Positions 17,677-42,053 of a stretch of DNA of 64,000 nucleotides are shown here, one piece after another (within the stretch, counting starts at the first letter, position 1; every line of letters begins with the position of its first letter). The notes beneath the pieces are model-generated. The model had not been told where the DNA came from. It saw only the letters and a program-made list of their open reading frames with translations, and did no database searches. The stretch comes from Escherichia phage KarlSchell_Bas89, in sequence record PQ850613.1. One strand, 5' to 3'. The position numbers were made by a program, and so were the translations under genes.

Positions 17677-18502
17677 GCCATGACCACTCGAAGAGGTCTT
17701 CTGGTGTTTGACCTACGAATAGGAGACGAGCATTCTCAAGCATCTTTTCTTCCCATTCTGTATCAAACTTCTTATAATATTCCATTCGCACTATATGATA
17801 AAGAGTCCACTTATCACTTACACCTTGTAAAAGGTTAATAGCAGCTTTCTTTCCAATCCCTTGACGACGGAGTTGTAACTTACCTCCCCACATGACTTCT
17901 TCACGCTCGCCACAACCGGGAATGTTGTCTGTGCCATCACCAATAAGCATTTGATAAAAGAAGTTTTGCCAAGCAACCTCATCTGATACGTAGTGAGGAG
18001 GAACCTCTTTCTGCCTTTCTCCACATGCCCACCGATAATGCCATCCGGGGGTTATCAATAAATCTTTGTCTCGTGTGCAGATGATAGTGTTCTTGTCAGT
18101 TCGCTGCCTTTCTGCTAATGCATCGTCAGCCTCTCTTCCATAAACACCTACATACTCGTAGTTATTTTTAATGTAATCACCAACGTTCTGCCAGTGGAAA
18201 GGTCTTTCTCCCGGAGGTCGGTTGGCTTTGTACCCTTGCTGCTTTGCTACATCAAAACGGAAGTTACCGCCTTCGCTGAAGTAGAAGATTGTCTTTCGGC
18301 AACCAGCGCGAGCAATGATTGTATCAATTTTATTTTGAAGTCGTTCAATTAGAAATCCATAATCTACTGGTGTACGTCCTGTATCTAGGAAAGGATGCTC
18401 CTGAGTCAGAGCACCCACTTCGTATCGGAGAACATCAGCATCAACCAAAGCTACTTCAGGATACTTAACATCTTCCATAAACATCATCCCGAGTTTGAGC
18501 AA
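17639..18502 (-). CDS. 5'-3' exonuclease / flap endonuclease (T7 gp6-like)
   Basis: ALVDADVLRY, GREADDALA, TRDKDLL, IGDGTDNIPG acidic-cluster motifs. Confidence 0.75.
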   Translation of the reverse strand: MLKLGMMFMEDVKYPEVALVDADVLRYEVGALTQEHPFLDTGRTPVDYGFLIERLQNKIDTIIARAGCRKTIFYFSEGGNFRFDVAKQQGYKANRPPGERPFHWQNVGDYIKNNYEYVGVYGREADDALAERQRTDKNTIICTRDKDLLITPGWHYRWACGERQKEVPPHYVSDEVAWQNFFYQMLIGDGTDNIPGCGEREEVMWGGKLQLRRQGIGKKAAINLLQGVSDKWTLYHIVRMEYYKKFDTEWEEKMLENARLLFVGQTPEDLFEWSWLDKIWNKDIDNG

Positions 18503-19079
18503 TAATCCAATCCAAATAATATCGAGCTTCCGAAATAGTCCGATTATTATATAATGTGCAAGTTTCTAACTGATTTCCTTCAATATAATTCCTAGAATCT
18601 CCAGAAAAATCACATCCCTCTCTTTTGACTTGAACTACTACTACATTGAAAGACTTCTCTAACTCTCTTACCTCTGCTTCAAACCCACCGTCCGTAAACA
18701 GGATAACATCATTATGATTCCTCCCTTCTGCATTGATGCTGTTTACTGCTTGGATTCCCATATAGTTCTCACCAAACATAGGTTTTAAGTAATCTTCACT
18801 TGTGGAAATCATTAAATCCCTAACAGATCTCCCTCCCCATTCAGGTCTAGCCTTTTCTTTCCAGTCTCGGTCTTTATACAACTCCAGAAAATCCTCCAAC
18901 TGCAAACCTAATGCTGCGGAGGCTACTTTGTACATAGGCTCTTTAAATGATTTAGCATAACGGGAATAAGACGCAATGTGGGATTTTAGTAACCACTCCT
19001 CAGCTATCGTGTCTTTACCACAACCCGGAGGCCCATTGAGAATTACTACTAAAGGTTTAGACTTATCAGTCATTTCCAA
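18465..19079 (-). CDS. P-loop nucleotide kinase (probable dNMP kinase)
   Basis: Walker A ILNGPPGCGKDT near N-terminus, about 200 aa. Confidence 0.5.
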   Translation of the reverse strand: MEMTDKSKPLVVILNGPPGCGKDTIAEEWLLKSHIASYSRYAKSFKEPMYKVASAALGLQLEDFLELYKDRDWKEKARPEWGGRSVRDLMISTSEDYLKPMFGENYMGIQAVNSINAEGRNHNDVILFTDGGFEAEVRELEKSFNVVVVQVKREGCDFSGDSRNYIEGNQLETCTLYNNRTISEARYYLDWIIAQTRDDVYGRC

Positions 19080-19462
19080 TCTCCAATGATTTCCATATCT
19101 AGTTTGTCTCCTTTCTTTGTAAGGAGTATTGCTGGTTTATCTTTACTTTTCATGTACTCAAACATGTGCAGAGAGCCTCTTGACTCTCCATCCCAGAAGA
19201 CTATTGCTGAGTCAGCATATTCTCCCATGTCTACGTTTCTAAGGATACCAGCTTTCTTTCCTAAGGTTGTCCAAGACGGGATAAACCTTTTAATACCAAG
19301 GCCGTTATGCTTAGCAATAACCTCTCCATGAGAGTCTGGCCCTTTTGCTCCCCCTGATACAACTTCAGTGAAGAGCTTAGGTATACCTTTCGGGAGTAAA
19401 TCCCACATCTGAATAAAAGAAGGCCAGTCAATAGACCGGCTTCCTGCTATAATCACTTTCAT
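19070..19462 (-). CDS. SLOG/DUF2493-like Rossmann-fold protein
   Basis: KVIIAGSR ... GGAKGPD ... AGILRN ... VFWDGESRGS pattern. Confidence 0.45.
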   Translation of the reverse strand: MKVIIAGSRSIDWPSFIQMWDLLPKGIPKLFTEVVSGGAKGPDSHGEVIAKHNGLGIKRFIPSWTTLGKKAGILRNVDMGEYADSAIVFWDGESRGSLHMFEYMKSKDKPAILLTKKGDKLDMEIIGDWK

Positions 19463-22048: not shown

Positions 22049-22300
22049 TTACCATTCCATCATTCCTTTTAATCTAGATTCTTCTACTATTCGCTGATAG
22101 AGTAAGTTAGACTCAGCTTGATCTTTTAACATTTTACTGTATTGATCTCTGAGACTATCTTTATAAACAACAGGTGGTTTAAATAGTGATGATACTTTGT
22201 TCTTTTCTTCTTTCATCAAAAGTCTTCCTAATCTCTTGCAGAGATACAGCTTTAAAGTTGATTTGTTCCATCGAGGTACAGAAGTATCTCCAATCATCAA
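22049..22300 (-). CDS. hypothetical protein
   Basis: ORF, overlaps 3' end of next gene in another frame. Confidence 0.25.
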   Translation of the reverse strand: MMIGDTSVPRWNKSTLKLYLCKRLGRLLMKEEKNKVSSLFKPPVVYKDSLRDQYSKMLKDQAESNLLYQRIVEESRLKGMMEW

Positions 22301-22685
22301 TCACATGATTGTGAGTATGAGCATAGATGTTGAACTTCCCTCTCATTTCATCAGCGTGAATGGGAATGTGAGTCACCCAAAACTCTTTGTACTTGAAGTC
22401 ACCTGATACAGTTCTGAACACTTTCATAATCTGTGGTAACAAATCCAGTCTGTCATGATTCCCTAAGACAAGATGCTTCTCGCCTTTAATCTCATAGATG
22501 ATATCCAGTGCATATGGTTCAAACACCCAATCACCAGTGAAGAAAGTCTTATCTCGTTTAGTCACATGGTCAAACGCTGAAAGAACTGCTTTATCGTGCT
22601 CTTCAATACTACCAAACTGTTTACGAAACTTGCAGATATTACGATGACCTAAGTGACCATCTCCTGCGAAATATACTTCAGCCAT
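22179..22685 (-). CDS. metallophosphoesterase (calcineurin-like)
   Basis: GDGHLGH, GDWV, LGNHD, AHTHNH motifs. Confidence 0.7.
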   Translation of the reverse strand: MAEVYFAGDGHLGHRNICKFRKQFGSIEEHDKAVLSAFDHVTKRDKTFFTGDWVFEPYALDIIYEIKGEKHLVLGNHDRLDLLPQIMKVFRTVSGDFKYKEFWVTHIPIHADEMRGKFNIYAHTHNHVIDDWRYFCTSMEQINFKAVSLQEIRKTFDERRKEQSIITI

Positions 22686-22694
22686 AAAGACCTC

Positions 22695-23177
22695 TTAGAT
22701 AGTTAATTTGTGATCTTCCTCCGCTCTGTTTCTGACAGAGACGGCTTCCTCTAGGGTTGAGAAAGTTCCTAGGTATTTAGTTTTACCTTTAATGTGTATG
22801 TTGGCTATGTACTTCCCTCTTGAATTGAGGTACACACCCTTAGCCCCTGAGGTGTTGTTAGAATTCAAACCCTTATTCCAAGAGTTATTCTCGTTGTTAA
22901 CCTCTCTAAGGTTGCCTATGGAATCATTGGAAGGATTTCGATCAATGTGGTCTATTTGATCTTTAGGTAAAACGCCATTAGCAAAATACCAAATGATATG
23001 GTATCTGTAAATAGCTCTTCCTTTCAATCGAATAAACACTCTTCCATCCTTTTTTGAAGTTCCTGCCTCATCACCTCGCCTGCATTTTGTTCCGTTGTGA
23101 ATTCTCCAGAACACTTTCCCAGATGATAAATCACAAACAAAGAACTCATCCAGAAGATCTTCTATCATATCATGCAA
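22695..23177 (-). CDS. HNH homing endonuclease with AP2-like DNA-binding domain
   Basis: IDHIDRNPSNDSIGNLREVNNENN plus YLGTFSTLEEAVSVRNRA. Confidence 0.75.
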   Translation of the reverse strand: MHDMIEDLLDEFFVCDLSSGKVFWRIHNGTKCRRGDEAGTSKKDGRVFIRLKGRAIYRYHIIWYFANGVLPKDQIDHIDRNPSNDSIGNLREVNNENNSWNKGLNSNNTSGAKGVYLNSRGKYIANIHIKGKTKYLGTFSTLEEAVSVRNRAEEDHKLTI

Positions 23178-25066: not shown

Positions 25067-25552
25067 TCAATGTGTGTGATTCCAATTTAATCCAATCTGA
25101 CAGTCAGATGCCAGAGGGCATTCCATCTTGAGATACTCACCAGCTTTCTTAACACAAAGCTCTGTAAGCTCTTTTAGCTTTTGTGCATCATTACGGTGAA
25201 CAGAGAACTGCCCTTCATCGTGCATGTCAATAACCTTCGCACAACGAACACCATCACGCTCAATCCACTTGTTAAGGAAAAGCATGGCATACTTCATAAC
25301 AATCGCACCAGCACTCTGTAAGAGAGTATTCAGTGCTTTATGAACCATTACCTTGCCTGTTGCATCACGTCTCATTGTAATACGACGACCATCAACACCC
25401 AAGATATAACCTTGAGCTGCTTTCTCTGTCATACGCTCAATAAGAATTGCAATACAAGGATTCTCTGCCAAGAAACGTGCTCTCATTACTGCACCTTCTT
25501 CAGAGCCTCCACCAACGATAGAACCGAGCTTAGCATCACCTGCCCCATCAAT
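25067..25552 (-). CDS. DNA polymerase (family A, T7 gp5-like), 3' segment (after the inserted HNH element)
   Basis: Frame open upstream of the listed Met gives IDGAGDAKLGSIVGG...; contains ALNTLLQSAGA and motif C HDE; protein ends in H like T7 gp5 (from memory). Confidence 0.7.
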   Translation of the reverse strand: MDGAGDAKLGSIVGGGSEEGAVMRARFLAENPCIAILIERMTEKAAQGYILGVDGRRITMRRDATGKVMVHKALNTLLQSAGAIVMKYAMLFLNKWIERDGVRCAKVIDMHDEGQFSVHRNDAQKLKELTELCVKKAGEYLKMECPLASDCQIGLNWNHTH

Positions 25553-26332
25553 AGTTCAAGCAAAGGCGCTACTCTTTGCTCCGTTCTCTTATGAACTGCT
25601 TACAGTTTCCTGTAAGATCGGACTATATCTTCATCTCCACCTTTACGTGCTGAGAGACAGGCGCTTCCGTAACACTTGTTACGTACTCCCTTCCGGGATA
25701 GTCTCTGAACTTTCCGTGACACAAACTTTTCTACATAGATCAATGAACTGAGCATCAGATAGTTTACCTTTTGCATTATTCACTTCCCAAGTTACCCATT
25801 GGACATTTCCAATTTCGTAACCTTTCGAATTATCCTTCCTATCTAAAGAAAGTTTATTCGGGTGTCCGCTGACGAAAGATAGTGAATCCCCTGTCAAGGC
25901 ACATTTGTAGTTTTGCTGAGAAAGAAGCTCGAATAAATAGTCTTGAGTAATCGTGAACTCAAAACCCCTTTCTCTAGCTCTGTGATGGGAGTTGTGATAT
26001 CTCTCACGAACCGCTCCACCCCAAGTTTGTCGATATTGTCCCATAGCAGCAGATGCTGCACTTCTGTTTCGACGTCTCCACTCATTTGAAGCAATGCGAG
26101 CACAATTTTTACATTGACATTGCTTTCCATCTTTACTCTTAGATGAATTATGGAAACTGTCGAGTGGCTTTTCTTCGCCACAGCTTGAACATATCTTTGT
26201 CATAAACACCTCCTTGTGTTGATGTTTATGTCACGGCTTAGCTGCTGATTGGCATATCTTTCGACTTAGCTTTCCAGCAATTCACCTGTTTTGCTTCTGC
26301 ACATTTCTATGCAGTGAACCAATTATTTAGTT
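25553..26332 (-). mobile_element. candidate group I intron carrying an HNH endonuclease ORF, inserted in polymerase motif B
   Basis: Upstream piece stops right after TFIYAF, downstream frame resumes at IDGAGD; about 780 nt between, containing an ORF with its own RBS; boundaries approximate. Confidence 0.45.
25679..26209 (-). CDS. HNH homing endonuclease (insertion-encoded)
   Basis: SLDRKDNSKGYEIGNVQWVTWEVN; own RBS AAGGAGG. Confidence 0.8.
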   Translation of the reverse strand: MFMTKICSSCGEEKPLDSFHNSSKSKDGKQCQCKNCARIASNEWRRRNRSAASAAMGQYRQTWGGAVRERYHNSHHRARERGFEFTITQDYLFELLSQQNYKCALTGDSLSFVSGHPNKLSLDRKDNSKGYEIGNVQWVTWEVNNAKGKLSDAQFIDLCRKVCVTESSETIPEGST

Positions 26333-27694
26333 AAAGGCATATATAAATGTCTTCGCATTGTCACGAGTAGGAAGACCAGCAAGTCTCTGGTTGTGGGAGT
26401 GGATATCACCTTCTAATAAAATGTCACGATACATAACAGCAGAAGCTAAACCACGTTCAGCCAATGCTTTCTTACCAGCGTTACCTTCTGCAATGGCTTC
26501 AGCAAGCATGTCTCTACACTCTTTAATGAGGTAGTGAGCAAGCATACGAAGCTCTAATCCAGAACCGTCATAACCTAAGAAGAGTTCTCTACCAGCTGGT
26601 ACATAATATTTATACAGACCTACCGGTTTGTCTTTCTTTCCGGGTTTTCCACGTTCGTAGATAACGTTTGTATTTTTTCGTAAGTAACACCCATCAGGGA
26701 TATTGTTGGTAATGATGAAAGGATAGTTATGACTATCATCTGTGGAGTAGTTAGATTGAAATAAACTCCTACACTCGTGACCAAACAAACCGCGAGAAGG
26801 AATATTAACAACAATGCGATGTTTAAAACGAAATGTCGGAGTAGCGCAGCTATTAGCTTCCGCTGAGAGTTTACCATCTGGACGTTCCTTATCAATCAGT
26901 CCATTAATCAAGCCTAGTCTGTGAGCCGCTACAACACGTCTCTTAAGCAGACTTCCCACTTTACCTAGATCACCCTCAAGACCTTCTTCAAGAGTCTCTT
27001 CGAGGTTTGTAGGAGCTGTGGGCCACTTGTTTGAAGTAGCTAATGCTCTCTTAATTTCATCAAAGGTTACAGGTTTCTTCCTGTTAGGGTTCAAACCTAA
27101 ACCAAAGACATAAGCCTTCATGTAGTTGACAGTTTTGTGACGGAAGTGCTTATCCAAGAACTTCTTGATATCAGCATCAACCATCTGAGCTGTCTGTCGC
27201 TCTTTCTCATTGCCACGCATCCAAGAGTTGTACCATTCTTGATACGTTCCACACTTACGCATGGCTCGCTTAATCTCAAATGTGTTCCAAGGCTTCTTAG
27301 ATGTATTAAATTCTGGAGGAAGAAAACCTTCATCCATCAGTGCTTCTTTAACTCGTGCATCCTTTGATGGGTCAAAGTCAACATACTCAACACAAGTAAA
27401 AGCTCCACCAATATCTTCTCTCTTTAACCCTACTCTGTCGCAATATAATTGAGGCCACTTCTGAAGAGCACCAGTCTTCTTAAAGGGTTTCATGTAAGTA
27501 GAGCCATCAACCCTCATCTTAGGTAACAGAGGAATTAATTCTCTGTCGATGTTAACGATAATCTCTCTGAGAAGGTGAACATACCACCGTGCATTCCTCC
27601 GATTAAAGTTGACACCACTCTTCGCTTGCTTTGAAATTATATCAGCGACAGTCATCTCCGTTAAGAACGGAAGTACATCAGGGTTCTCCATCAC
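26333..27694 (-). CDS. DNA polymerase (family A, T7 gp5-like), 5' segment of polymerase domain
   Basis: GYDGSGLELRMLAHYL (motif A) and LPTRDNAKTFIYAF (start of motif B) closely match T7 gp5 as recalled. Confidence 0.8.
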
Positions 27695-28398: not shown

Positions 28399-28893
28399 TT
28401 AACTAGAGCTTAAAGCGTGTCTGATAGCTGTATGGCTTACACCAAACATCCTACCTAAAGCTCTTGTTCCAAACTGAGCAGAACCTTTGACATAAAGGTT
28501 TTTAACTCTTTTAACATCCTCTGTATTAAGTTTCATTCTAGGGTTTATGTTCCTGTGATGGCCTACATTAAGACCTGTATCAAAAGAATGTTGAACATTC
28601 TCAGAAGCATCTGCCCACTCTAGATTCTCAATACGATTATCACTTTTTACACCATTCTTATGATTTATCTGAGGTTTGTTTTCAGGGTTAGGTATGAAAA
28701 AGGTTGCTATCAACCTATGAGCTTTCCATGACCTCCCTTCAAAATAAACCCTAATATAACCTTTAGTGTCTAAGTGGCCAGCCTCTTTACCCGGATGGCT
28801 CTTATTCCACTTAAAACCTTTTGAAGATGACTCTGTGTAAAACAGACGACCAGAATCTCTATCATAAGAGAGGTAGTCGGATATAGGAATCAC
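28399..28893 (-). CDS. HNH homing endonuclease
   Basis: AHRLIATFFIPNPENKPQINHKNGVKSDNRIENLEWADASEN. Confidence 0.8.
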   Translation of the reverse strand: MIPISDYLSYDRDSGRLFYTESSSKGFKWNKSHPGKEAGHLDTKGYIRVYFEGRSWKAHRLIATFFIPNPENKPQINHKNGVKSDNRIENLEWADASENVQHSFDTGLNVGHHRNINPRMKLNTEDVKRVKNLYVKGSAQFGTRALGRMFGVSHTAIRHALSSS

Positions 28894-29259: not shown

Positions 29260-30000
29260 TTAGTTGCCACCCTTCTCCATAGCTTTAACGATTGCTTTAC
29301 AGAAACCAGAACGAACAATGTCATCCGAGTCGCCATCAACAATATCAGCGAACTCGTACAGATCATGCTCATCAATGAACTCGGTAGCCCAAGTAAGACC
29401 ACTCTCCCGACCTTTCATATCGTGCTGGTTAGTGTCACCCATGCAGAACAGCTGGGATGTTTCACCCAAGCGGGTCATGATAGAGAATGCTTCATCTTTG
29501 GTTGTATTCTGGAACTCATCCACAATAACAATGGCATCATTGAAAGAGCGACCACGGAGGTATTCCAGAGGCACAAACTCAATATTCCCATTACCAAGCT
29601 GGCATTCATAAAAACCTTTACCATATCGCTGAGTAATCACATCAACAATAGGCATCAGGTATGGTTCGAACTTATCACGAAGCCCACCCGGAAGTAACCC
29701 AAGAGAATTACCCATGCCAACAGAGGGTCGGCTAATGATAATCTTTTGAATCTTACCACTCTTCAGTGCATCAATGACAGTAGAGGTGATGACGAATGTC
29801 TTACCACAGCCCGCAGGAGCGTCTGTGAACACCACTTGTTTAGTCTTGATAGCATTGAGTAGCTCAGATTGAAACTGATTCTGAGGGACCACTGGCTTCG
29901 CTAAAACAACCTCTTCATACTCACGCTTACCTTTCTTGGTGACTAAGGCTTCACGACGTAAATCTTTACGAGATTCTCTACGGGACTGTCTACGGCTCAT
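29260..30000 (-). CDS. phoH: PhoH-like ATPase
   Basis: Walker A DAPAGCGKTF and PhoH-like length/architecture. Confidence 0.8.
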   Translation of the reverse strand: MSRRQSRRESRKDLRREALVTKKGKREYEEVVLAKPVVPQNQFQSELLNAIKTKQVVFTDAPAGCGKTFVITSTVIDALKSGKIQKIIISRPSVGMGNSLGLLPGGLRDKFEPYLMPIVDVITQRYGKGFYECQLGNGNIEFVPLEYLRGRSFNDAIVIVDEFQNTTKDEAFSIMTRLGETSQLFCMGDTNQHDMKGRESGLTWATEFIDEHDLYEFADIVDGDSDDIVRSGFCKAIVKAMEKGGN

Positions 30001-30182
30001 TTGCGCTCTCCTAGCTCTTCGTAATTAAATACAGAGGTTCGACAATCTTTACATATTGTTGTATAGACTCGAACATTAATGAACTTCTTGTTCTTCCCTT
30101 TGGTGGGTGAGCCTTTAGCAAGCTCACTGATAACTTTAGAACTTAAGTTTAGGTTTGTGCCTTCACATTTAGAGCACTTCAC
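29997..30182 (-). CDS. small zinc-ribbon protein
   Basis: CSKCEG ... CKDCR cysteine pairs. Confidence 0.35.
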   Translation of the reverse strand: MKCSKCEGTNLNLSSKVISELAKGSPTKGKNKKFINVRVYTTICKDCRTSVFNYEELGERK

Positions 30183-30345
30183 TCAGGCTCACCAACAGTA
30201 ACTTCCAAAACAACTTGAGAGATGATGTTGTTGATCTGTTTGATTTGCTCATAAGTCAGTTGCATACCTTTCATTTTCCGAGGGGCATTACTTCGTGCTC
30301 TTCGCTGACGATAAAAATTGTTCTTTTTGACAGAGTGTAAGCTAC

Positions 30346-30576
30346 TCATTTTAAATCCACCAACTCAAGATTCCACCAAACATCTTCCATTCTCGGCGAA
30401 CGCCCACCGAATGAGTCGTCGCAGTTCTTGTTGTTTAGGGTGTAATCGATAGAGTAACAAGGCACACCTTCATCTTCTAGCTGCTTTCGAGTCGGTTTAT
30501 CTTGGAACACAGCTTCGAAGTATGAACCATCTTGATCATATTCATTTATTTCACGAGTTAGAACCCATACTTTCAT
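30346..30576 (-). CDS. hypothetical protein
   Basis: ORF only. Confidence 0.3.
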   Translation of the reverse strand: MKVWVLTREINEYDQDGSYFEAVFQDKPTRKQLEDEGVPCYSIDYTLNNKNCDDSFGGRSPRMEDVWWNLELVDLK

Positions 30577-30794
30577 TTCACAACCTTAAACTTAAATGTT
30601 GTTGGGTGGTAGTAGTGTAACCTGTTTATTGTGTGCTTAGTCTCATGATACAGAACACAAGAGTGGCACATTGAATGGTGCAAACAGGTTACTGGATTAC
30701 GTTTGAAATTGGCAATAAGCTTCCGCTTGTTACAGAAGCTACATGTTTTGTGTAAGTCCATTAACTCTCCAGAGTTTTCCTTAGAGCTGACCAA
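30573..30794 (-). CDS. Cys/His-rich small protein
   Basis: CSFC ... CLHHSMCHSC. Confidence 0.35.
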   Translation of the reverse strand: MVSSKENSGELMDLHKTCSFCNKRKLIANFKRNPVTCLHHSMCHSCVLYHETKHTINRLHYYHPTTFKFKVVK

Positions 30795-31417
30795 GAAATT
30801 GGGTAGAGTTTAGCCATCTCTTCATCTAATGACTGAGCAAACAGTCGAACTTCATACTGAGCATGGGATGATAGTCGTTGACGACACAATTCAAACCAGC
30901 CATACAAGCTACCAGTCCAGACCCACTCAGTAATCATTCCCTGAGGAAGAACAAAGCGAGCTTGCTCTGGTGCAATAAATTCAATTAGCTTATCATACGC
31001 TGCCAGTGAAGCTTCGTATGCATTATTGATCAGCATTAATGCTTCGGCTCGTTCTCCGTTGACAAGCTGTGTCCCTGAACCTGCATGGAGGTCCGAAGGT
31101 CTCGCAAAAATCTCTTTAGGGATGAAGACTTCAACTGCTCCATCTTTATACCGCCGGGACATTTCGTTCCACGAGAACCCAATTTGGTGTTTTCCAAGCT
31201 GTCTCGCAATTGCGATAGGTGCTTTGCATCGGAAACTGACTTGTGGGTGTCGGAATGGCGTAACATGCTTCTCTCTTGCGAGAAAGTTGATGAGACGTTC
31301 ATCGCGATCATTTAAATCACCTTCGCGGGTTACGCCAAAGGAAACTCGAGCTGCGTTTACTACGCTACGATCACTTCCCATAGCTTCGATTAATGTTGCT
31401 TGTAATTGTTCATTCAT
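30761..31417 (-). CDS. thyX: flavin-dependent thymidylate synthase ThyX-like
   Basis: KAPIAIARQ ... SWNEMSRRY and LSSHAQYE match ThyX signature regions as recalled; canonical RHR appears as KHQ. Confidence 0.75.
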   Translation of the reverse strand: MNEQLQATLIEAMGSDRSVVNAARVSFGVTREGDLNDRDERLINFLAREKHVTPFRHPQVSFRCKAPIAIARQLGKHQIGFSWNEMSRRYKDGAVEVFIPKEIFARPSDLHAGSGTQLVNGERAEALMLINNAYEASLAAYDKLIEFIAPEQARFVLPQGMITEWVWTGSLYGWFELCRQRLSSHAQYEVRLFAQSLDEEMAKLYPISWSALRKTLES

Positions 31418-31436
31418 CCGTGAATTTCCTTATTTC

Positions 31437-31712
31437 TTATTTAATATCCAAAGCTGTTACTAAGAAAGCTTTCAGGTTTGCTTCAGTCTGCATACCAGAT
31501 AAGCTATAATGTGCTCCGCTGTTACGATTAGGCACAATGAAAGCAGGAATGCTTCGTACACCGTACTCGATAGCTCGCTCACGACCGTTGCCTTCGAGGA
31601 TATTAACCTCTTCAACTTCTAGGTTAAGCTCTTCAGCTAATTTGTTGAGGGTAGGAGCCATTGCTTTGCAAGGGGCACATTGATTACTATAAAACTTAAT
31701 AATTTTGTTCAT
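31437..31712 (-). CDS. thioredoxin/glutaredoxin-like protein
   Basis: CAPC active-site-like motif near N-terminus, about 90 aa. Confidence 0.55.
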   Translation of the reverse strand: MNKIIKFYSNQCAPCKAMAPTLNKLAEELNLEVEEVNILEGNGRERAIEYGVRSIPAFIVPNRNSGAHYSLSGMQTEANLKAFLVTALDIK

Positions 31713-31719
31713 AAAAACC

Positions 31720-31974
31720 TTAAGCAGTGATCAGGTGGAGGGTAAATGGGATGACCACAGAGATAATAACCCAAGCAACAGATGCGATTTGGATTTCATT
31801 CTTCTTGTCCGGTGTCTCTTCAATAAGTTTCTTGCTGCCATAATAAACACCGCCGCCAATGAGAAGTGCCCAAATACTCCAAATGGTTGCTGATAACATA
31901 TTCAATTCCTTATAAACAAGTTCGCCCCACCTCGGATTAGGAGACAGGGCGGAGGTTTTAGTATGAGACGTCAC
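31720..31974 (-). CDS. small membrane protein (two predicted TM helices; holin-like)
   Basis: Hydrophobic segments IWSIWALLIGGGVYY and VAWVIISVVIPFTLHLI. Confidence 0.3.
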   Translation of the reverse strand: MTSHTKTSALSPNPRWGELVYKELNMLSATIWSIWALLIGGGVYYGSKKLIEETPDKKNEIQIASVAWVIISVVIPFTLHLITA

Positions 31975-32545
31975 TGGAGTGTGACATGTTACTTTTAACG
32001 AAGTAGCAATACTTGCCTAACCCTTCGTTGATTTCTTGGAGCATGCTCTGGTCAACTGGATACTCGCTCAAACATCCATCGAACTCATCCATTTTGTCAA
32101 TCATGCACATTAAAGACATGCACATATCAGAGAGCATACCATCCATATCTAGGTCTGCATTTCCTTCAGAGAACCAAGAGTGTGACAAGTAGTTAGAAGC
32201 AGTTGCATCCACCTTAATACAGTGGAAACGCATACGTTCAGCTATCCGATCACCTGTCTCACGAGCATAATCTTCCAGCTCATCAAACATTCCATGAACA
32301 CCCTGAAACCCTGCACCAGATACGTTCCAGTGATAATTCTTAGCTTTGATATGCAAGAGTTCTAAGTTAGCTTGAATACCGCATAGAATGTGTTCTAGGC
32401 TGTTTCCACTAATCATCCCTTGCATACGCTCTAAACGGGAGATAGAAGAGTCTGTTTCACGTAATACATCACGGAAAGAAGTCTCTTTTGTTAGAGTTGG
32501 TAAGTCGAAAACATTGTGATTAGACATTAGGATTTTCTCCATCAA
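31958..32545 (-). CDS. Dps/ferritin-like protein
   Basis: KNYHWNVSGAGFQGVHGMFDELEDYARETGDRIAERM resembles the Dps signature region. Confidence 0.5.
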   Translation of the reverse strand: MMEKILMSNHNVFDLPTLTKETSFRDVLRETDSSISRLERMQGMISGNSLEHILCGIQANLELLHIKAKNYHWNVSGAGFQGVHGMFDELEDYARETGDRIAERMRFHCIKVDATASNYLSHSWFSEGNADLDMDGMLSDMCMSLMCMIDKMDEFDGCLSEYPVDQSMLQEINEGLGKYCYFVKSNMSHSSDVSY

Positions 32546-32849
32546 GTTCTACTGAGTTCGCAACATTGCGTTCCAGATTTGAGATTACCTGTTGGGTGAT
32601 AACGATGCAGTTCTGTGGGTCAACTGACTTAGAACGTCCCATCTCAGGGTCATACACCTTAACACGTTTTGCTGTAGAACCAGTTACCTGTAACACCTTG
32701 AGAAGATAACCCTGATTCCCGATAGACCATGCAACAACATCACGATTCTTGATGAATCGACCAAGCATATCACGATGGTAGAACTGCTGCATAACCTTTG
32801 ATTTATTAATCTCTTCGGCTGGCGGAGCCACTTTACTCAAATCTAACAT
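32520..32849 (-). CDS. hypothetical protein
   Basis: ORF; TATACATTT (one-mismatch promoter-like 9-mer on minus) about 40 nt upstream. Confidence 0.35.
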   Translation of the reverse strand: MLDLSKVAPPAEEINKSKVMQQFYHRDMLGRFIKNRDVVAWSIGNQGYLLKVLQVTGSTAKRVKVYDPEMGRSKSVDPQNCIVITQQVISNLERNVANSVELDGENPNV

Positions 32850-32921
32850 TTCACTCTCTCCTGTTTAATACAATATTCTTATACTGTATATACATTTGAG
32901 AGTGATCATATCTACTACCAA

Positions 32922-33134
32922 TTAGTAGTAAACATATCCAGAGATATATGAGCCTTTATCCCCACTAAACTCAAACCATCGATGCATGTCAGCACGTTTA
33001 ACCGTACCGACTAGAGCTTTCATATTCTTCTTAGCAATACGAGCCTCTTTACGAGTGTTAAACAGTTTGATATTATCTTTACCTAGATGGTGTCCATCTT
33101 CCCAAACAACACGAACAGCCCACATCTTTTTCAT
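32922..33134 (-). CDS. small basic protein, member of tandem paralog trio
   Basis: MKKMWAVRVVWEDG ... YISGYVYY shared pattern with two neighbours. Confidence 0.45.
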   Translation of the reverse strand: MKKMWAVRVVWEDGHHLGKDNIKLFNTRKEARIAKKNMKALVGTVKRADMHRWFEFSGDKGSYISGYVYY

Positions 33135-33546: not shown

Positions 33547-34071
33547 TTATCTTTCATCCACATTAAAGGAGAGATGGAGTCTGCTTCTCATAGACTTAGC
33601 TAAAAGTTTTGCCTCTTCGAGAGTTTTCACTCCATATACAGACTCACGTTTACCATCTTTTTGAACAGAGACACAGAACGTCCCACCTTTCTCTTGGTAG
33701 ACATTCTTAATCCCTAGCTTGTTATCAACTCTGGTCTTAGCATTCTGACTATTTTCAGAGTGAGAACACTTTCTCAGGTTAATTTCTTCTAGATTCCCTC
33801 TGTTACCATCAGCGTGATCTATTTGATATTCATCCGATAAATCCTCACCAGTATAAAGAACAAAAAGAATCCTATGATTATGGACACGAACTCCTCCTAA
33901 GGGAATTTGGTAATATCCATCTTTTGTGAGTTTTCCAGCAGGTTTCCCTGCTATATCATTAGCAAATTTACTAGGCTTCCTTTTCCAAGAAAGCCCTGAC
34001 GGGGATGACATGTCTATGTTAAAAAGATCAAACACTTCATCATAGCATATCAGCATGGTTTGTTCCACCAA
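33547..34071 (-). CDS. HNH homing endonuclease with AP2-like domain
   Basis: YQIDHADGNRGNLEEINLRKCSHSENSQN. Confidence 0.75.
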   Translation of the reverse strand: MVEQTMLICYDEVFDLFNIDMSSPSGLSWKRKPSKFANDIAGKPAGKLTKDGYYQIPLGGVRVHNHRILFVLYTGEDLSDEYQIDHADGNRGNLEEINLRKCSHSENSQNAKTRVDNKLGIKNVYQEKGGTFCVSVQKDGKRESVYGVKTLEEAKLLAKSMRSRLHLSFNVDER

Positions 34072-34594
34072 AAGCTTTTGTTGGCCCTTGTTGGTTATTG
34101 TATGAACCTTTAGTTGCGTAACTATCTTCTTCAGAGGAGGAGTGTTTAAAGAACTCCATTTGACCGATACGCATTCCCGGCTTAATTAGCAAAGAGTGAT
34201 GCTGTAGGACGTTCTTGAATTCCATAGTAAGTTGGCTCCCATGCCACCCACCGTCAGCATGACCAGCGTGCATGTGCTCTAAGAAGCAACGACCAACAGT
34301 GGACCGTAACATGAAGTCACAACTAATATTATCTGGCAGGTTGAATGTCTCCACTGTATGAGCCAAGAAGCACTCACCCGGTTTGATAACTAAACCTTCT
34401 TCTGGAATCATAACCTCGTTGAAGTTAGGAGACTCTTTAGCGGAGATATCAACAACCCCATTAGCTGCTCCTTCCATCAGAACACGGTCTCCAATACGAA
34501 CATCAATACTGGAGGAGTTAACAGCTGAGTGAGGTGCATCAATAACACCATCATCGATTAGTTTATGTAATTCCGGACTTCCTAATAAACTCAT
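34040..34594 (-). CDS. dcd: dCTP deaminase-like (dUTPase superfamily)
   Basis: N-terminus and length resemble Dcd; beta-rich, Gly-rich loops. Confidence 0.6.
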   Translation of the reverse strand: MSLLGSPELHKLIDDGVIDAPHSAVNSSSIDVRIGDRVLMEGAANGVVDISAKESPNFNEVMIPEEGLVIKPGECFLAHTVETFNLPDNISCDFMLRSTVGRCFLEHMHAGHADGGWHGSQLTMEFKNVLQHHSLLIKPGMRIGQMEFFKHSSSEEDSYATKGSYNNQQGPTKAFGGTNHADML

Positions 34595-34608: not shown

Positions 34609-35889
34609 TTAATCTGCGATACTATCGCTTTCATCAACCCAGACTGTACCATTAACCTGTCTTAGACGACGAGCTGACGCTTCGTTAATAGAGTTAACCC
34701 CTGCTGTGCGAGGGTTTGTGTACCAAGGTCGAGCTATGGTGCCCTCTCGAATCACTTGGTTCGTTTCGACATGCCATCTGTTTGATACCATGTTGGCTTC
34801 AAAGTTACCACCCGCTCCACCACTGATAGGCACAGCTTGAGCTGGTTGGTTTACTCGGTTAGTTCCTGCCCCAAAGGATGCTGCAAATTCAGACATACGT
34901 GCATCAAATGCAGAACGAACACGCTGAGTAGGTGATATATCATTTCGTGTATCTACTGCACGAGGCATAGCCCAAGTATCATCTGTTGAGATATCAGGGG
35001 TAGGCTCTTGCTCTAGAGGTTGAAGATTAGCTGTCCATTGACTGTTCAGTATACGATAGAAATCTGCACCATAACCACTTCGGATAACATCTTCTCTGAT
35101 ACCAAAAAAGCGACTAATATCTCCACCGATTCGGGCCAACTTATCGTTGTATGTAGATACAGATACCCCACTTTCTGTTACTAAGTCAGAAACACGACTT
35201 GTTGTAAGTGGTGAGTTATTCCAACAATAATAGTCAGTAATGTGGCCGTCATACCCAAAGTATGCAACCTCTGCATCAGGCCATTTCTTGTGGACATATG
35301 CCACTTCGCGAGTAGAACAAACAGGGATTGCGCCTGTTTCAGTCATTGCATAGAAGCCGTCAGAAGAGAACCAAAGTGAGTCTAGTGCTAAGAATCCACG
35401 ACACACACTTGGGAAAGTAGCAGCCAGCGCCCCAAGTGAGGTGGGTTCGTTGAACATTAACTGAACCTTTGCACCCTGATAATCAATCTCTAGGATATCT
35501 ACAAAATTCAAAGAAGACCCAGGGGCATATTGACTATTACTTCGTCCAATATCCTGCTCAACAAGAAGAGATCTTGTTTCAACACCATGAGCCTCTGCCC
35601 ACTCTTTGAAATCTTCAAGGAACAAGCGAGCCTTAGCTCGCCACATCGACCGATCAGTTACGGATTGTCTCGGCAATCCGCCCTCTGTAGTGATGAGGAA
35701 GATATCAATGTCATGGGGCTCACGCGTCTGGAAGATTGCATCCCTAACAGCACCACCTGCAATGATAGGGTACACACCATCAGGGATTAAACGGTTTGCA
35801 ATCAACTCGTTAATTAACGTAAGACCAGACATAAGCTGCGGACTGTCATCAATCCGACGACGAATTAGTGCATTAGGGATATTATACAT
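34609..35889 (-). CDS. nucleotidyltransferase with Pol-beta/CCA-adding-type head motif
   Basis: IIAGGAVRDAIFQTREPHDIDIF matches GGxVRD...DxD; start ATG directly abuts the stop of the exonuclease gene. Confidence 0.45.
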   Translation of the reverse strand: MYNIPNALIRRRIDDSPQLMSGLTLINELIANRLIPDGVYPIIAGGAVRDAIFQTREPHDIDIFLITTEGGLPRQSVTDRSMWRAKARLFLEDFKEWAEAHGVETRSLLVEQDIGRSNSQYAPGSSLNFVDILEIDYQGAKVQLMFNEPTSLGALAATFPSVCRGFLALDSLWFSSDGFYAMTETGAIPVCSTREVAYVHKKWPDAEVAYFGYDGHITDYYCWNNSPLTTSRVSDLVTESGVSVSTYNDKLARIGGDISRFFGIREDVIRSGYGADFYRILNSQWTANLQPLEQEPTPDISTDDTWAMPRAVDTRNDISPTQRVRSAFDARMSEFAASFGAGTNRVNQPAQAVPISGGAGGNFEANMVSNRWHVETNQVIREGTIARPWYTNPRTAGVNSINEASARRLRQVNGTVWVDESDSIAD

Positions 35890-36438: not shown

Positions 36439-38222
36439 GGGCTTTTCTCTCCATCTTGAGCAAGAAGTGATGCTGCATCCTCTCCATTTGTCAGCGAGAA
36501 TGGATTTTCTTCATCAATTTCATGTTCTTCACGCTCAAGCAGTCGTCCCGTCTCTCCTACATATTTCGTATAGCACACCCCTGTTTGTCCATAGTTACGC
36601 TCTTTGAGGAGTCGTATAATGGAGAGGTTCTTAGCCAGACCATCTGCTTGTTTGTCACGTTCAAAACCGATGATACATTGACACCAACGCATAAGAGAAC
36701 GAGAGCCAGTAAACTGTACCTCTCGAACCTGACCACCTTCTTCATGAGGTGCACCACCTGCCGGAGCATTGAGGTGAGATAATACGAATGCTGTGAAGTT
36801 TAATTCTTGACACATACCAGCAAGCTCGGAAGCAATCTTACTGATTTCAGTGTTAATCTCTGAAGGTGTTAAATGAGACACCAGAGCGGTAATATTATCA
36901 AGGATGATAAACTTACACTGGTTTTCAACAACCCAGAAACGGATACACTGTTTAATGTCGGCCCATTCATTCTGACCAAAGTTATCATAGAGGAAGAATT
37001 TATCTGCATATCGAAGAGCTTCGTTACGCAATGTATCTTCATCATACTCAACATCAGGTCTGTGGAAAGGGATAGATGCTGACTTACCTGCAATGTTCTT
37101 AACGGACATTCCGACCTTCTCTTCCAAGAAGAATCCACCACCATTAAAACCATGCTCAAGACAAAGCCAAGCAACCAGTTCATGTGCAATCAGTGTTTTA
37201 CCAGAGCCTACACCGCCACCAATTGCTACCATCTCTCCCCAACGAATACCGTAGGTCATCTCATTAAGAGTCTTCCACGGATATGGGATACCCCACTCTG
37301 CTTTCTTCAGAGCATCATCTAAGCAATCAAAAACAGTTACAGCACCAGCTGGAGATTCACGCTTCGCTGAATATTTAAGAATGTTAAACAACTCCTGACC
37401 ACGACCAGAGAGAAGCATATCATTCGCATCTTTAAGTTCTTTCTCAACACCATTGTACTGGAAAGAACCTTTAGGAATACGAGCAAACTTCACATGTGGG
37501 AACAGAGCACGCCCTTTGGTAAGAGCAATCTCACCAGCATCATCGTTGTCCATACAGAGGACAACCTCTTCAAAACCATTCAAGAACTCACGGTTGCGAG
37601 ATAGAACGGAAGAGATTGACCCTGCACCGAATGGTAAAGAGACACACGCTGGTTTAATGTTTGTTGCATTTGTAAAAGCTGTAAGAACGTGGAAGCCAGA
37701 CATACAAGACAAGGGGTCTTCAAAGATGAAGAGCTTCTTATTGTACACATCTCCACGTTTAGCCTGTGCCATACCAAACAAATCAGCTTCTTTCACACTA
37801 CCGATGTAATAAAACTTTTTACTATCGAGCAGTTTAACCTCATAACCGACAATGTTTCCATCACGTTCACGAGGGAAGAAGTAACTATCCGGTGTCTGAC
37901 CATCAGTTTGACTGAGACCTATACGACACTCAAAACGCTCTGATACAGCTTTAGGGATTAATCGACGAGTGAGTTCTCCTTGAGGTAACTCCAAGCAATC
38001 ATCCAAGACTTCTCGAAGTTCTTCAGGGGACAGCTCTTTCTTTTCATTTGGTGTAGGTGTCGTGCCTTTCTCAAAGACTTCGTAATTACCACACCGGTTG
38101 CAACTTCCAAAAGTTTCTTCAGTTTCTTCGTTATGAAACAGAATCATATGATTGCCGGTCTTGTCCCTACCATGTGACTGGCATTCTTTACAAGCGCAAT
38201 CTCCAATAATCTTTTTAGACAT
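36432..38222 (-). CDS. DNA primase/helicase (T7 gp4-like)
   Basis: Zinc ribbon CACKEC...[23 protein letters not shown], Walker [20 protein letters not shown]; start at internal Met 38222 with GGAG upstream. Confidence 0.85.
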
Positions 38223-38706
38223 ATAATCTCCATCCGTGAGTTTGTTTATATTCTCCGCTATATAACCTGTAAAGGGCGGCAGAATCAACACCAGAAAGCC
38301 TTGAAAGCTGTCTTATACTATCACCTGAAACAATTTCCCCATTACTAGAGACGATCGACATACTCTTACCAAAAGAATATATCTGATTGTACTCAGAAGT
38401 GCACCACTCTAGATTCTCTACCAGATTATTATCTGGCTGTTCATCTATATGATTAACTTGAGGTAAGTTTTCAGGGTTAGGAAGGAAAGCTATAGCTACT
38501 AATCTGTGTACACTTCTAGTACATTTAACACCTTCAGAGTTTGTCATTCTCACGTAAAGATATTTACGACTATAATGTAGAGACTTGATAGCTGGCTCTG
38601 TGGGAGGTTTTCTCCCACGTCCAGTAATTCTCCAAGATCTTATACGTCCAAAGGATGAAACCTCATACCCCGGAAAATCTGTAATTGGTTTCCATTCTTC
38701 TGACAT
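38215..38706 (-). CDS. HNH homing endonuclease
   Basis: VHRLVAIAFLPNPENLPQVNHIDEQPDNNLVENLEW. Confidence 0.8.
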   Translation of the reverse strand: MSEEWKPITDFPGYEVSSFGRIRSWRITGRGRKPPTEPAIKSLHYSRKYLYVRMTNSEGVKCTRSVHRLVAIAFLPNPENLPQVNHIDEQPDNNLVENLEWCTSEYNQIYSFGKSMSIVSSNGEIVSGDSIRQLSRLSGVDSAALYRLYSGEYKQTHGWRLYV

Positions 38707-38743: not shown

Positions 38744-38953
38744 TTACTTATAAAAACTTCGAATCATGTCCCAGATTTCTTCCTGCTGGACCCTAAAGAA
38801 AGCTAAACGTGTCGATGTACGTTCAATAAATTCTTCACTATGCTTTTCTCTATCTAGCATACTGACAAGCTTTTCATATTTATTGATCTTCCATCGCATT
38901 TTTAAATAGTCTGATTCTAGTGTCCTTAACCTCTGACACTCAATCAAATCCAT
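38744..38953 (-). CDS. hypothetical protein
   Basis: ORF only. Confidence 0.3.
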   Translation of the reverse strand: MDLIECQRLRTLESDYLKMRWKINKYEKLVSMLDREKHSEEFIERTSTRLAFFRVQQEEIWDMIRSFYK

Positions 38954-39372
38954 CAGTTATCCTCTGACAGATAAAGAGACCAGTCACCAGATTCAACCAG
39001 TTCATCTTGCTCTTCATCAATGTGATAAATCCAAGCAGTGACAGTTTCACCACTATCCAGAACCACTTCGATAGGTGTACGCTTATAGAAAGTGTGTGGG
39101 TTGTCATTACCACGATGCCCTTCCAGCATGTCATAAGCACCCTCAACACCGTCCATGTCAGTTTTAAACACTTCAACACGAACAGGTTTACCGTTACTGC
39201 TGTGTTCCAGAGAAACACTTGGGAAGTATGAACCACCGTAGCGGTACAGGTTGTAGTTTTCTTTAGTGAAACCTTCACCAATCGATTCAGCACCTGCACG
39301 AGCATTCACTCGGAAGTTAGCCTGACCAGTACGAAGAGAACCATAAGTTGCTACATAAATTACTTCTGACAT
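38953..39372 (-). CDS. gamma-glutamyl cyclotransferase-like (AIG2/GGCT family) protein
   Basis: N-terminal YVATYGSLRTG ... RYGGSYFPSV pattern. Confidence 0.45.
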   Translation of the reverse strand: MSEVIYVATYGSLRTGQANFRVNARAGAESIGEGFTKENYNLYRYGGSYFPSVSLEHSSNGKPVRVEVFKTDMDGVEGAYDMLEGHRGNDNPHTFYKRTPIEVVLDSGETVTAWIYHIDEEQDELVESGDWSLYLSEDN

Positions 39373-39443
39373 TTTAAATACCTTTGTTCATTGTTTAGTT
39401 AATCCGAACTAGCCTCCTCTTTCGAAGAAGCTAGAGCAGATTG

Positions 39444-39626
39444 CTATGCTGTGAAGTTTTTGATTACACCGCAAATAACATCTGTTTCAAACGTACCCAC
39501 CAGAACATCGTCTCGGTAGAAGTTAATCGCCTTACCATCTCGGTTAAAGTGATCTGCTTCAATGAGCATAGATTGTACCTGACCATCTGGAGTGGAGGTT
39601 CGAAAGATGACGTTATACTGACTCAT
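39444..39626 (-). CDS. hypothetical small protein
   Basis: ORF only. Confidence 0.25.
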   Translation of the reverse strand: MSQYNVIFRTSTPDGQVQSMLIEADHFNRDGKAINFYRDDVLVGTFETDVICGVIKNFTA

Positions 39627-39865
39627 AAAGAAGTTACTCCCTTATCTTCTTGGGCGATAGAGATGATACGACTCACACACTGCATTGAGTACTCATCACC
39701 ACGCTTTAGGAACGTTACGATAGCAGAGAATTGATTACCAATCATCCGCTCATTTGTAATACCGAACTCTTTGCAGAGTTCTTTCAGTTTGCTACGAGAA
39801 CCAATAATCAGAGGTTCTTTTTCTTCAGTCATTCCACGACTAATCAAATCTTCAATAGACAACAT
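39623..39865 (-). CDS. hypothetical small protein
   Basis: ORF only. Confidence 0.3.
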   Translation of the reverse strand: MLSIEDLISRGMTEEKEPLIIGSRSKLKELCKEFGITNERMIGNQFSAIVTFLKRGDEYSMQCVSRIISIAQEDKGVTSL

Positions 39866-39888
39866 AATTCCATTCCTTGGGGGTTTAA

Positions 39889-41106: not shown

Positions 41107-41108
41107 TT

Positions 41109-41342
41109 TTAGATACCTTTAAGTTTAAGAATTTCGTTGCGAGTACGTTGGATACGTTCTTCAAGAGTGTGATAATCAAAGATGCACATCTCTTCTGCTT
41201 CATCAGAAGGTGCATCCATTAAACCCATAGCAATCGGATACACCTTTCGCTGTTCCGTTGTCATGCCCTGTAGCCGGAGTCGTTGATACTCCAGCAGGGT
41301 AATTTTCGGCTTGTTAGTTTCCTTGCTTGACATGAGGCTCAA
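41109..41342 (-). CDS. hypothetical small protein
   Basis: ORF only. Confidence 0.3.
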   Translation of the reverse strand: MSLMSSKETNKPKITLLEYQRLRLQGMTTEQRKVYPIAMGLMDAPSDEAEEMCIFDYHTLEERIQRTRNEILKLKGI

Positions 41343-41547
41343 CCTTGATACCTTTCAGTTTCACATAGTCAGCCAGCACGTTGTTAATAACTGTTGGGAA
41401 AGGAATCTCAACAGGTGCATTAACTAACCCACCAATACCCTCTTGCATCCACTTCTGGATTGCACGAAGGTTATCACATCCTGTGCTTGTCATTGGAATA
41501 CGGCGAGTGGTTACAACGTTATCCAACATCATCTTACGAATTTCCAA
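41314..41547 (-). CDS. hypothetical small protein
   Basis: ORF only. Confidence 0.3.
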   Translation of the reverse strand: MEIRKMMLDNVVTTRRIPMTSTGCDNLRAIQKWMQEGIGGLVNAPVEIPFPTVINNVLADYVKLKGIKVEPHVKQGN

Positions 41548-42043: not shown

Positions 42044-42053
42044 TCTACACCTC

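Follow-up and report, generated by a model that had tools for sequence, protein, structure and literature searches.

Introduction

The signature by which flavin-dependent thymidylate synthase (ThyX) is recognized reads R-H-R-x7-S (Myllykallio 2002, quoted in PMC2826268). Together with the arginine equivalent to R165 of the Thermotoga maritima enzyme (residues in that numbering carry the prefix Tm below), which is contributed by the neighbouring subunit, the RHR triad hydrogen-bonds the AMP and FMN phosphates and the ribityl chain of flavin adenine dinucleotide (FAD), and its first arginine contacts the isoalloxazine (PMC6514825). In the reduced T. maritima enzyme R78 faces N1 and C2=O of the flavin and stabilizes FADH-, a task that generally falls to 'a basic residue' (PMC11940539), while another study counts R78 and R80 among the hydrogen-bonding partners of deoxyuridine monophosphate (dUMP) as well (PMC3498832). 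Here we describe the thyX gene of Escherichia phage KarlSchell_Bas89 (PQ850613.1; the whole analysed stretch of 64,000 nucleotides is referred to as the window), whose product reads KHQ in place of RHR. The motif serves as a diagnostic of ThyX, and yet a very large clade, to which this protein belongs, does without two of its arginines.

Like the ThyX proteins of T. maritima (TM0449; 1KQ4/1O26) and Thermus thermophilus (6J61), the window protein belongs to the corresponding Pfam and TIGRFAM families, with ~33-35% identity to them and the same fold (TM-score ~0.8), and has in common with them Tm H53, R74, Q75, H79, N85, E86, S88, R90, Y91, R147, R174 and Q180. It differs from both in the replacement of R78 by Lys and of R80 by Gln, in one additional residue between the triad and Ser88, and in the changes W76 to L, Y84 to W, R143 to P, R165 to Y and G89 to R. 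The closest RHR-bearing relatives recovered are chromosomal ThyX proteins (RHR-x7-SRRY) from metagenome-assembled genomes (MAGs) of Marinimicrobia, Lentisphaeria and Albibeggiatoa, at 34-39% identity; they share with the window protein the S-R-R-Y form and the EQARMVLPQ helix motif, but retain RHR, the x7 spacing and an arginine at Tm143. No substantive difference separates the window protein from the ThyX of phiEco32, SU7, Salmonella SeKF_80, Yersinia PYps23T, Erwinia Nougat, Pseudomonas K4 and Pelagibacter phage Mosig, all of which combine KHQ-x8-SRRY with a nucleotide-metabolism neighbourhood, as in the window, and are annotated plainly as thymidylate synthase or ThyX.

A ThyX homologue without the signature arginines

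The source phage is a Gordonclarkvirinae (phiEco32-like) coliphage, and region 30000-33000 of the window shares 94% identity with Escherichia phage EP335 (genus Nieuwekanaalvirus) and ~82% with phiEco32 and BASEL phages Bas92/93. The thyX open reading frame (ORF) starts with ATG, 9 nt downstream of an AAGGA, and its annotation as thyX dates back to the phiEco32 genome record. With some Escherichia phage records the encoded protein shares 94-96% identity, and with the best metagenomic cluster 89%. That it is a ThyX homologue, as an earlier note made from the sequence alone had proposed, is borne out by Pfam PF02511 (Thy1; 149.5 bits against a cutoff of 24.8, E 1.3e-43, profile positions 1-190/191), by the NCBIfam equivalog TIGR02170 'FAD-dependent thymidylate synthase' (127.2 bits, cutoff 87.9) and by PHROG 85 (thymidylate synthase, E 8e-61). 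The predicted fold agrees: an AlphaFold2 model, built as a monomer without ligands from a 56-sequence alignment, reached a pLDDT of 94.5 and a pTM of 0.88, and the best 50 matches of a Foldseek search of the PDB were all ThyX (TM-score 0.75-0.83, E ~1e-17 to 1e-18), with T. maritima ThyX at 0.81-0.83.

Both arginines of the triad are replaced, as the same note had read from the sequence. In the HMMER alignments the segment ARQLGKHQIGFSWNEMSRRY pairs with 'ARQWFRHRIA-SYNELSGRY' (T. thermophilus 6J61, E 2.7e-30; T. maritima 1KQ4, E 6.6e-25), which sets ARQLG-K76-H77-Q78-IGFSWNEM-S87-R-R89-Y90 against ARQWF-R78-H79-R80-IA-SYNEL-S88-G-R90-Y91, and a 13-sequence MAFFT alignment gives the same register. 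Residues 12-201 of the T. maritima sequence used here were confirmed against the PDB chain sequence in the HMMER alignment. Eight residues precede the motif serine instead of the canonical seven, so that the protein departs from R-H-R-x7-S and reads K-H-Q-x8-S, keeping only the histidine and the serine. The note had also named the conservation of the arginines at shifted positions as an observation that would speak against a true replacement; since the segment between ARQ (71-73) and SRRY (87-90) contains no arginine at all, rescue of the triad by a shifted register is excluded.

The variant motif in phages and metagenomes

The substitution cannot be attributed to drift, because among the 120 closest homologues (53-89% identity; collection of 5.8 billion sequences) 119 carry KHQ-x8-S-x-RY, with KSQ in the remaining one. 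A HMMER search of 1.84 billion representatives clustered at 50% identity returned 6895 matches at E<=1e-3, of which 358 reached E<=1e-30; RHR is absent from each of the 150 best-scoring representatives (all E<=1e-36). KHQ is found in 70 of these 150, the remainder showing KHK, KHT, RHT, RST, KHV and the like, nearly always followed by SRRY. The signature of the subfamily can thus be written as [K/R]-[H/S/Y]-x-x8-S-R-R-Y in place of R-H-R-x7-S. Statements about the clade draw on hit lists and on per-column statistics for each motif class.

Phage carriers of non-RHR forms include Gordonclarkvirinae, Salmonella phage SeKF_80, Yersinia PYps23T and Chaseviridae (Erwinia phage Nougat), as well as two members of Zobellviridae, Pseudomonas K4 (KHQ) and Celeribacter P12053L (KHK), the pelagimyophage Mosig, and Rheinheimera phages. 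Bacillus phage Eoghan and Streptomyces phage PumpkinSpice have a 'KY' form that is more distant and has a longer insertion, and RHR is kept in the sampled Thermus, Rhodobacter, Mycobacterium (Bxz1-like) and Synechococcus phages. Within the collections searched, KHQ is accordingly a fixed hallmark of a ThyX subfamily that is very large and carried mostly by phages, rather than a peculiarity of one phage, and its retention in 119/120 homologues at 53-89% identity, together with the count of 0/150 for RHR, indicates that it is under strong constraint.

This constraint bears on the idea that the window protein is an inactive relic or a non-catalytic protein binding dUMP or flavin. In its favour, two signature arginines considered essential in canonical ThyX are gone. 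Strong purifying selection over hundreds of divergent homologues in which the other catalytic residues are invariant, retention in streamlined phage genomes and on bacterial chromosomes, and the homing of inteins into the motif leave it extremely improbable.

Inteins were noticed at two sites among the homologues, both of which correspond to the active site. Four proteins (P0122, P0135, P0204, P0236) carry an intein with an HNH-type endonuclease domain exactly inside the variant motif (KHQ-x-GF / intein / SWNE), as expected of an essential active-site segment, and in two others (P0231, P0233) an intein lies between the conserved histidine (Tm H53) and TPF.

Coliphages, marine phages and ocean metagenomes are rich in non-RHR ThyX, which some bacterial chromosomes also encode. 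The phylogenetic study in PMC2826268 dropped ThyX sequences that deviated from RHR-x7-S by more than two dissimilar residues, and since so large a clade lacks RHR, motif-based surveys may undercount phage ThyX. A phage-dominated clade without RHR-x7-S, and with coordinated remodelling that includes R143 to Pro, appears to be undescribed in the searchable literature. An article of 2004 by Liu and Yang on Trichodesmium (J Bacteriol 186:6316), whose title reportedly ends in '...distinctive ThyX motifs', may already cover part of the non-RHR variant.

Residues retained and residues remodelled with the triad

What could a ThyX active site lose together with these arginines, and what does it keep? 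We aligned 178 ThyX homologues and split them by triad into 142 non-RHR and 36 RHR sequences. Tm H53 (folate stacking), Q75, E86, S88, R90, Y91, E144, R147, R174 and Q180 are the same in both classes, a set that comprises the residues by which the uracil ring is read and the dUMP phosphate held. In the clade samples of 56 and 142 sequences H53, Q75, E86, S88, R90, Y91, R147, R174 and Q180 are invariant or nearly so. Residues Q73, E85, S87, R89, Y90, R154 and R181 of the window protein, equivalent to Tm Q75, E86, S88, R90, Y91, R147 and R174, are invariant in 56 diverse clade members and present in at least 137 of the 142 non-RHR sequences. H51 aligns with the folate-stacking Tm H53 and is a histidine in 139/142, and the S-x-R-Y element and the other dUMP-contacting residues are likewise present in the window protein.

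A second set of positions changes with the triad. The x8 spacing replaces x7 in 118/142 non-RHR sequences, and Tm R143 has become proline in 126/142, while it is Arg or Lys in all 36 RHR-type sequences; ~30 of these 36 come from Marinimicrobia and Lentisphaeria, and the column counts of the two classes are descriptive only on account of this phylogenetic skew. In the aligned sequences the loss of the third motif arginine and that of Tm R143 are tightly coupled. Also co-varying with the triad are Tm W76 to L, Y84 to W, N163 to S and Arg/His165 to a non-basic residue, and Arg or Lys is frequent at Tm169/172. The notion that the extra arginine of S-R-R-Y compensates for the lost R80 was rejected, as the RHR-type enzymes of Marinimicrobia and Lentisphaeria have SRRY too. 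Tm R143 adjoins E144, the position that, going by the PDB entry titles, carries a mutation in the folate-complex structures of T. maritima ThyX.

The earlier note had taken the RHR arginines to bind the dUMP phosphate. Part of this stands, R78 and R80 being listed as hydrogen-bonding dUMP (PMC3498832), but the triad is described mainly as a ligand of the FAD phosphates and ribityl and of flavin N1/C2=O (PMC6514825, PMC11940539). Since the task of facing flavin N1 generally falls to a basic residue (PMC11940539), which a Lys can provide, the change of R78 to Lys is conservative for the catalytic role: Lys76 would retain the positive charge facing N1/C2=O, and Gln78 would retain only the capacity for hydrogen bonding. 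The non-conservative losses, R80, R143 and R165, thus seem to cluster on the side of the flavin phosphates and the folate and not at the site of C5 chemistry. The non-RHR clade offers a natural experiment on the contacts that the flavin relay really needs.

Such a pattern raises the possibility that the enzyme performs the same reaction with different handling of its cofactors. The loss of R80, R143 and R165 would then remove contacts to the FAD pyrophosphate/ADP moiety or on the NADPH/folate side, and the protein might use FMN or loosely held FAD, or another reductant or form of folate, still yielding thymidine monophosphate (dTMP). The contrast at Tm R143, the loss of Arg/His at Tm165 and the new Arg/Lys at Tm169/172 agree with this proposal, as do the description of RHR and the Tm R165 equivalent as FAD-phosphate ligands (PMC6514825) and the mutation of the adjoining E144 in the folate-complex structures. 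The case is, however, purely inferential, depends on the skewed RHR set, and amounts to a refinement of ordinary dTMP synthesis and not to a different function; as a separate explanation we regard it as unlikely.

Bacterial members of the clade

Across one genome per GTDB species, non-RHR ThyX is found mostly on prophage-like or mis-binned phage contigs, and two MAGs provide clear cases of a housekeeping chromosomal context. The first (L004) is a complete 1.79-Mb Spirochaetia chromosome (OZ251568.1), whose ThyX is 46-47% identical to the window protein and has the motif ARQLGKHQVGLAWNEVSRRY. The gene is flanked on one side by dihydrolipoyl dehydrogenase (Lpd), citrate synthase and a short-chain dehydrogenase/reductase, and on the other by dihydroorotate dehydrogenase (pyrD) and an orotidine-monophosphate decarboxylase/phosphoribosyltransferase protein (pyrF/pyrE). 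In the second, a marine Chloroflexota MAG (L005), thyX follows genes for 2-oxoacid dehydrogenase E1-alpha, E1-beta and E2 and precedes a major facilitator superfamily transporter. Carriers of the KHQ type include SAR202 genomes.

A further candidate, 'Rickettsiales bacterium MED657' (L016, NZHE01000011.1), was discarded as a mis-binned pelagimyophage. Its order of ferredoxin, HhH-GPD, ThyX and PhoH recurs on pelagimyophage-like contigs (L083-L085), and contigs with this order carry many small hypothetical genes along with a clamp-loader-like AAA protein, Cpn10, MazG and peptidase M15. A 526-bp contig assigned to Herbiconiux daphne (L002) encodes a fragment 69% identical to coliphage ThyX; both this record and L016 are probable mis-assignments in public genomes.

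Because KHQ is a fixed hallmark of a large subfamily and also stands amid bacterial housekeeping genes, ordinary dTMP synthesis is the most likely function, and the conserved positions suggest that the window protein is most likely an enzyme of ordinary dTMP synthesis whose cofactor pocket has been remodelled. We consider it quite likely that the ORF encodes a functional ThyX (dUMP + CH2-THF + NAD(P)H to dTMP + THF, where THF is tetrahydrofolate and CH2-THF its methylene form) of a large, divergent, mostly phage-borne subfamily, acting in a module that supplies thymidine triphosphate (dTTP). The data establish the family and fold of the protein, the substitutions with their fixation and distribution, the positions that co-vary and the contexts of the genes; that the enzyme is active, that it makes dTMP and that the missing arginines are compensated for is predicted on these grounds, and catalysis would be expected to involve a homotetramer, FAD at a three-subunit interface and dUMP-dependent oxidation of NADPH. 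Remodelling of the pocket on the flavin-phosphate/folate side would have accompanied the change of the triad, through the one-residue insertion, Tm Y84 to W, R143 to Pro, the loss of R165/H165 and the new Arg/Lys at Tm 169/172.

Several points weigh against this interpretation. Mutagenesis of the Mycobacterium tuberculosis enzyme by Ulmer in 2008 reportedly found the RHR arginines essential. All PDB sequence matches inspected are RHR-type, so that the non-RHR clade is not represented among the structures matched, the searchable literature yielded no biochemical work on any KHQ-type or other non-RHR ThyX, and no organism was identified here that relies on a KHQ-type ThyX as its only thymidylate synthase. 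Published descriptions present the arginines as strictly conserved FAD and dUMP ligands (PMC6514825, PMC3498832), which is why ThyX activity without them is something we infer. Finally, Gordonclarkvirinae are reported to be unusually resistant to restriction-modification (RM) with no known DNA-modification pathway (PMC11990801), which leaves room for unusual nucleotide chemistry.

Genomic context and the proposed nucleotide-supply module

The genes mentioned in the earlier note as neighbours of thyX are present: dCTP (deoxycytidine triphosphate) deaminase, deoxynucleoside monophosphate (dNMP) kinase and a phosphoesterase lie in the same early/replication region (Table 1). The deaminase gene is 2.6 kb upstream of thyX and adjoins the split DNA polymerase and primase-helicase genes, and four small ORFs lie between thyX and phoH. 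The arrangement of ThyX, PhoH, thioredoxin or glutaredoxin and ribonucleotide reductase recurs in Pseudomonas phage K4, and PhoH adjoins a KHQ-type thyX in the pelagimyophage contigs L083-L085.

Table 1. Coordinates of thyX, its motif and other features of the window.
Feature	Position	Strand	Evidence or remark
thyX, non-RHR ('KHQ') subfamily ThyX homologue, 218 aa	30761..31417	-	Pfam, TIGRFAM, PHROG, AlphaFold2 and Foldseek
ThyX signature segment, residues 71-90, ARQLGKHQIGFSWNEMSRRY (canonical ARQwfRHRia-SyNElSgRY)	31148..31207	-	HMMER and MAFFT alignments
Codons AAA CAC CAA (K76-H77-Q78), at T. maritima R78-H79-R80 positions	31184..31192	-	Sequence and alignments
Thioredoxin-domain protein, directly upstream of thyX	31437..31712	-	PHROG 22, E 2.3e-10
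PhoH-like P-loop ATPase, downstream of thyX	29260..30000	-	PHROG 170, E 9e-83
dCTP deaminase	34040..34594	-	PHROG 1663, E 2e-54; same annotation in EP335
dNMP kinase	18465..19079	-	PHROG 139, E 8.4e-41
SLOG-family (YAcAr-like) small protein	19070-19462	-	PHROG 'GTP-binding domain'
Phosphoesterase	22179..22685
'Nucleotidyltransferase', 426 aa, adjoining dCTP deaminase	34609-35889	-	N-terminal GGAVRD...DIDIF motif
Conserved cluster including four conserved hypotheticals	38953-49681	-
GGACT (gamma-glutamyl cyclotransferase-like)	38953-39372	-
RimK-like 'S6 glutaminyl transferase'	39889-41106	-
Class-II glutamine amidotransferase (GATase)	42054-43937	-
Amidoligase_2	44147-45247	-
phiEco32-type COOH-NH2 ligase	45868-46677	-
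HNH / endonuclease VII-type homing endonuclease genes	16332-16835, 22695-23177, 25679-26209, 28399-28893, 33547-34071, 38215-38706, 41534-42043, 46674-47144	-
Family-A DNA polymerase ORFs	26327-27694, 25067-25486
tRNA-Arg(TCT)	53287-53363	-

The route through dCTP deaminase, ThyX and dNMP kinase is a standard phage strategy for raising the supply of dTTP. In the proposed module the phage deaminase (Dcd) would convert dCTP to dUTP, from which dUMP would be formed by host Dut or by Dcd itself if it is bifunctional; ThyX would then convert dUMP to dTMP with CH2-THF and reduced flavin, and the phage dNMP kinase would carry dTMP on to dTDP. As an early source of nucleotides, the module would raise dTTP for replication of an AT-richer genome.

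In one homologue of 476 aa (P0166) an RHT-type, non-RHR ThyX is naturally fused to a deoxynucleotide monophosphate kinase domain (PF21448, E 3e-11). When the window dNMP kinase was compared with that domain by BLASTP, P-loop similarity was all that emerged, and the fusion is cited as general context only.

Restriction resistance and possible DNA hypermodification

Could the altered triad instead signal altered chemistry? In this scenario a KHQ-type ThyX would release a C5 product other than the methyl one (for example 5-hydroxymethyl-dUMP, through hydration of the exocyclic-methylene intermediate) or act on another pyrimidine nucleotide, and would thereby feed DNA hypermodification, possibly through the amidoligase, glutamine amidotransferase and gamma-glutamyl cyclotransferase cluster at ~38.9-49.7 kb; the restriction resistance of Gordonclarkvirinae would be explained. 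Two 'strictly conserved' arginines are indeed gone, and strong RM resistance has been reported for these phages, for which no modification pathway is known (PMC11990801). The window encodes, besides a phage dNMP kinase, a GATase, Amidoligase_2, the phiEco32-type COOH-NH2 ligase, a GGACT domain and a RimK-like protein, and amidoligase and glutaminotransferase Pfam matches have been noted in metagenomic clusters for thymidine hypermodification (PMC8989533).

The distribution of the motif speaks otherwise, as it is the same in phages with no ligase cluster near thyX (Chaseviridae, Zobellviridae) and in bacterial housekeeping loci. The accessory amidoligase and glutamine amidotransferase genes (GATase_6, Amidoligase_2, COOH-NH2_lig and GGACT at 38953-46677) have a phyletic distribution unlike that of KHQ-type ThyX; the COOH-NH2 ligase, for instance, is found in many ~45-kb Pseudomonas aeruginosa phages. 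Moreover, the uracil-reading R90 and R174 as well as S88, Y91 and H53 are invariant, and the replaced positions are in contact with N1 and the phosphates of the flavin and not with the substrate's C5 (PMC6514825, PMC11940539).

All known thymidine hypermodification starts with a ThyA-type hydroxymethylase, followed by a 5-hydroxymethyluracil (5-hmU) DNA kinase (5-HMUDK) and aGPT-Pplase (PMC8989533). The ThyA-family dUMP/dCMP hydroxymethylases of hmU and hypermodifying phages (SPO1, SP10, PhiW-14, ViI, M6) resemble ThyX in that they attach the carbon taken from CH2-THF at C5 of a pyrimidine dNMP and in belonging to phage modules that include a dNMP kinase (PMC8989533), but their fold and mechanism are unrelated (Cys nucleophile, no flavin); no ThyX-family hydroxymethylase is described in the searchable literature. 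A tblastn search of the window with E. coli ThyA gave no match better than E 0.98, and no ThyA annotation exists in the inspected parts of the EP335 genome. In jumbo phages, ThyX has been reported to be anticorrelated with ThyA (PMC7824862). Among ~45 ORFs scanned, which left out small ORFs and the ~12 kb of the genome outside the window, no Pfam or PHROG match pointed to a 5-hmU DNA kinase or an aGPT-pyrophosphorylase, the presence of models for these two families in the libraries being unconfirmed; the sole P-loop kinase among them matches the PHROG dNMP kinase. The literature on phage ThyX biochemistry, ThyX-based hypermodification and restriction digests of phiEco32-like DNA, so far as it is searchable, held nothing relevant.

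We therefore consider altered chemistry very unlikely. The earlier note's suggestion that the substitution accompanies an altered substrate is not supported, given a huge clade that spans unrelated phages and bacterial housekeeping loci, the invariance of the residues reading the uracil and the dUMP phosphate, and the results for ThyA and the other hypermodification enzymes in the scanned ORFs. The specific version, in which Gordonclarkvirinae ThyX supplies a C5-modified deoxyuridylate (not, or not only, dTMP) that the amidoligase, GATase and gamma-glutamyl cyclotransferase cluster elaborates into hypermodified thymidine, is a long shot. If true, it would account for the reported RM resistance, and DNA base hypermodification would have its first flavin-dependent, ThyX-type starting point. 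A link between KHQ-type ThyX and the restriction resistance of Gordonclarkvirinae is unlikely, and an apparently intact ThyX does not explain that resistance. The cluster at 38953-49681 could be relevant to it.

A different guess has been made in PMC11990801, which speculates on deoxyuridine (dU)-containing DNA from the dCTP deaminase and the adjacent nucleotidyltransferase; 'thymidylate' has 0 occurrences in that paper, and ThyX goes unmentioned. The presence of an apparently intact ThyX beside the deaminase argues against wholesale replacement of thymidine by dU in Gordonclarkvirinae.

Other features of the window

The 426-aa nucleotidyltransferase has no Pfam match at E<=1e-3. Its GGAVRD...DIDIF motif presumably resembles that of class-II CCA-adding and poly(A) polymerase enzymes, and this motif, together with the phage tRNA-Arg(TCT), suggests that the protein may have tRNA as its substrate, instead of the role in DNA modification on which others have speculated.

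Beyond the P. aeruginosa phages, Vibrio and Proteus phages are among the other carriers of the phiEco32-type COOH-NH2 ligase. The gene for the small SLOG-family protein lies directly upstream of that for the dNMP kinase. The replication module is unusually dense in free-standing HNH / endonuclease VII-type homing endonuclease genes, and the family-A DNA polymerase appears to be split into two ORFs around one of them.

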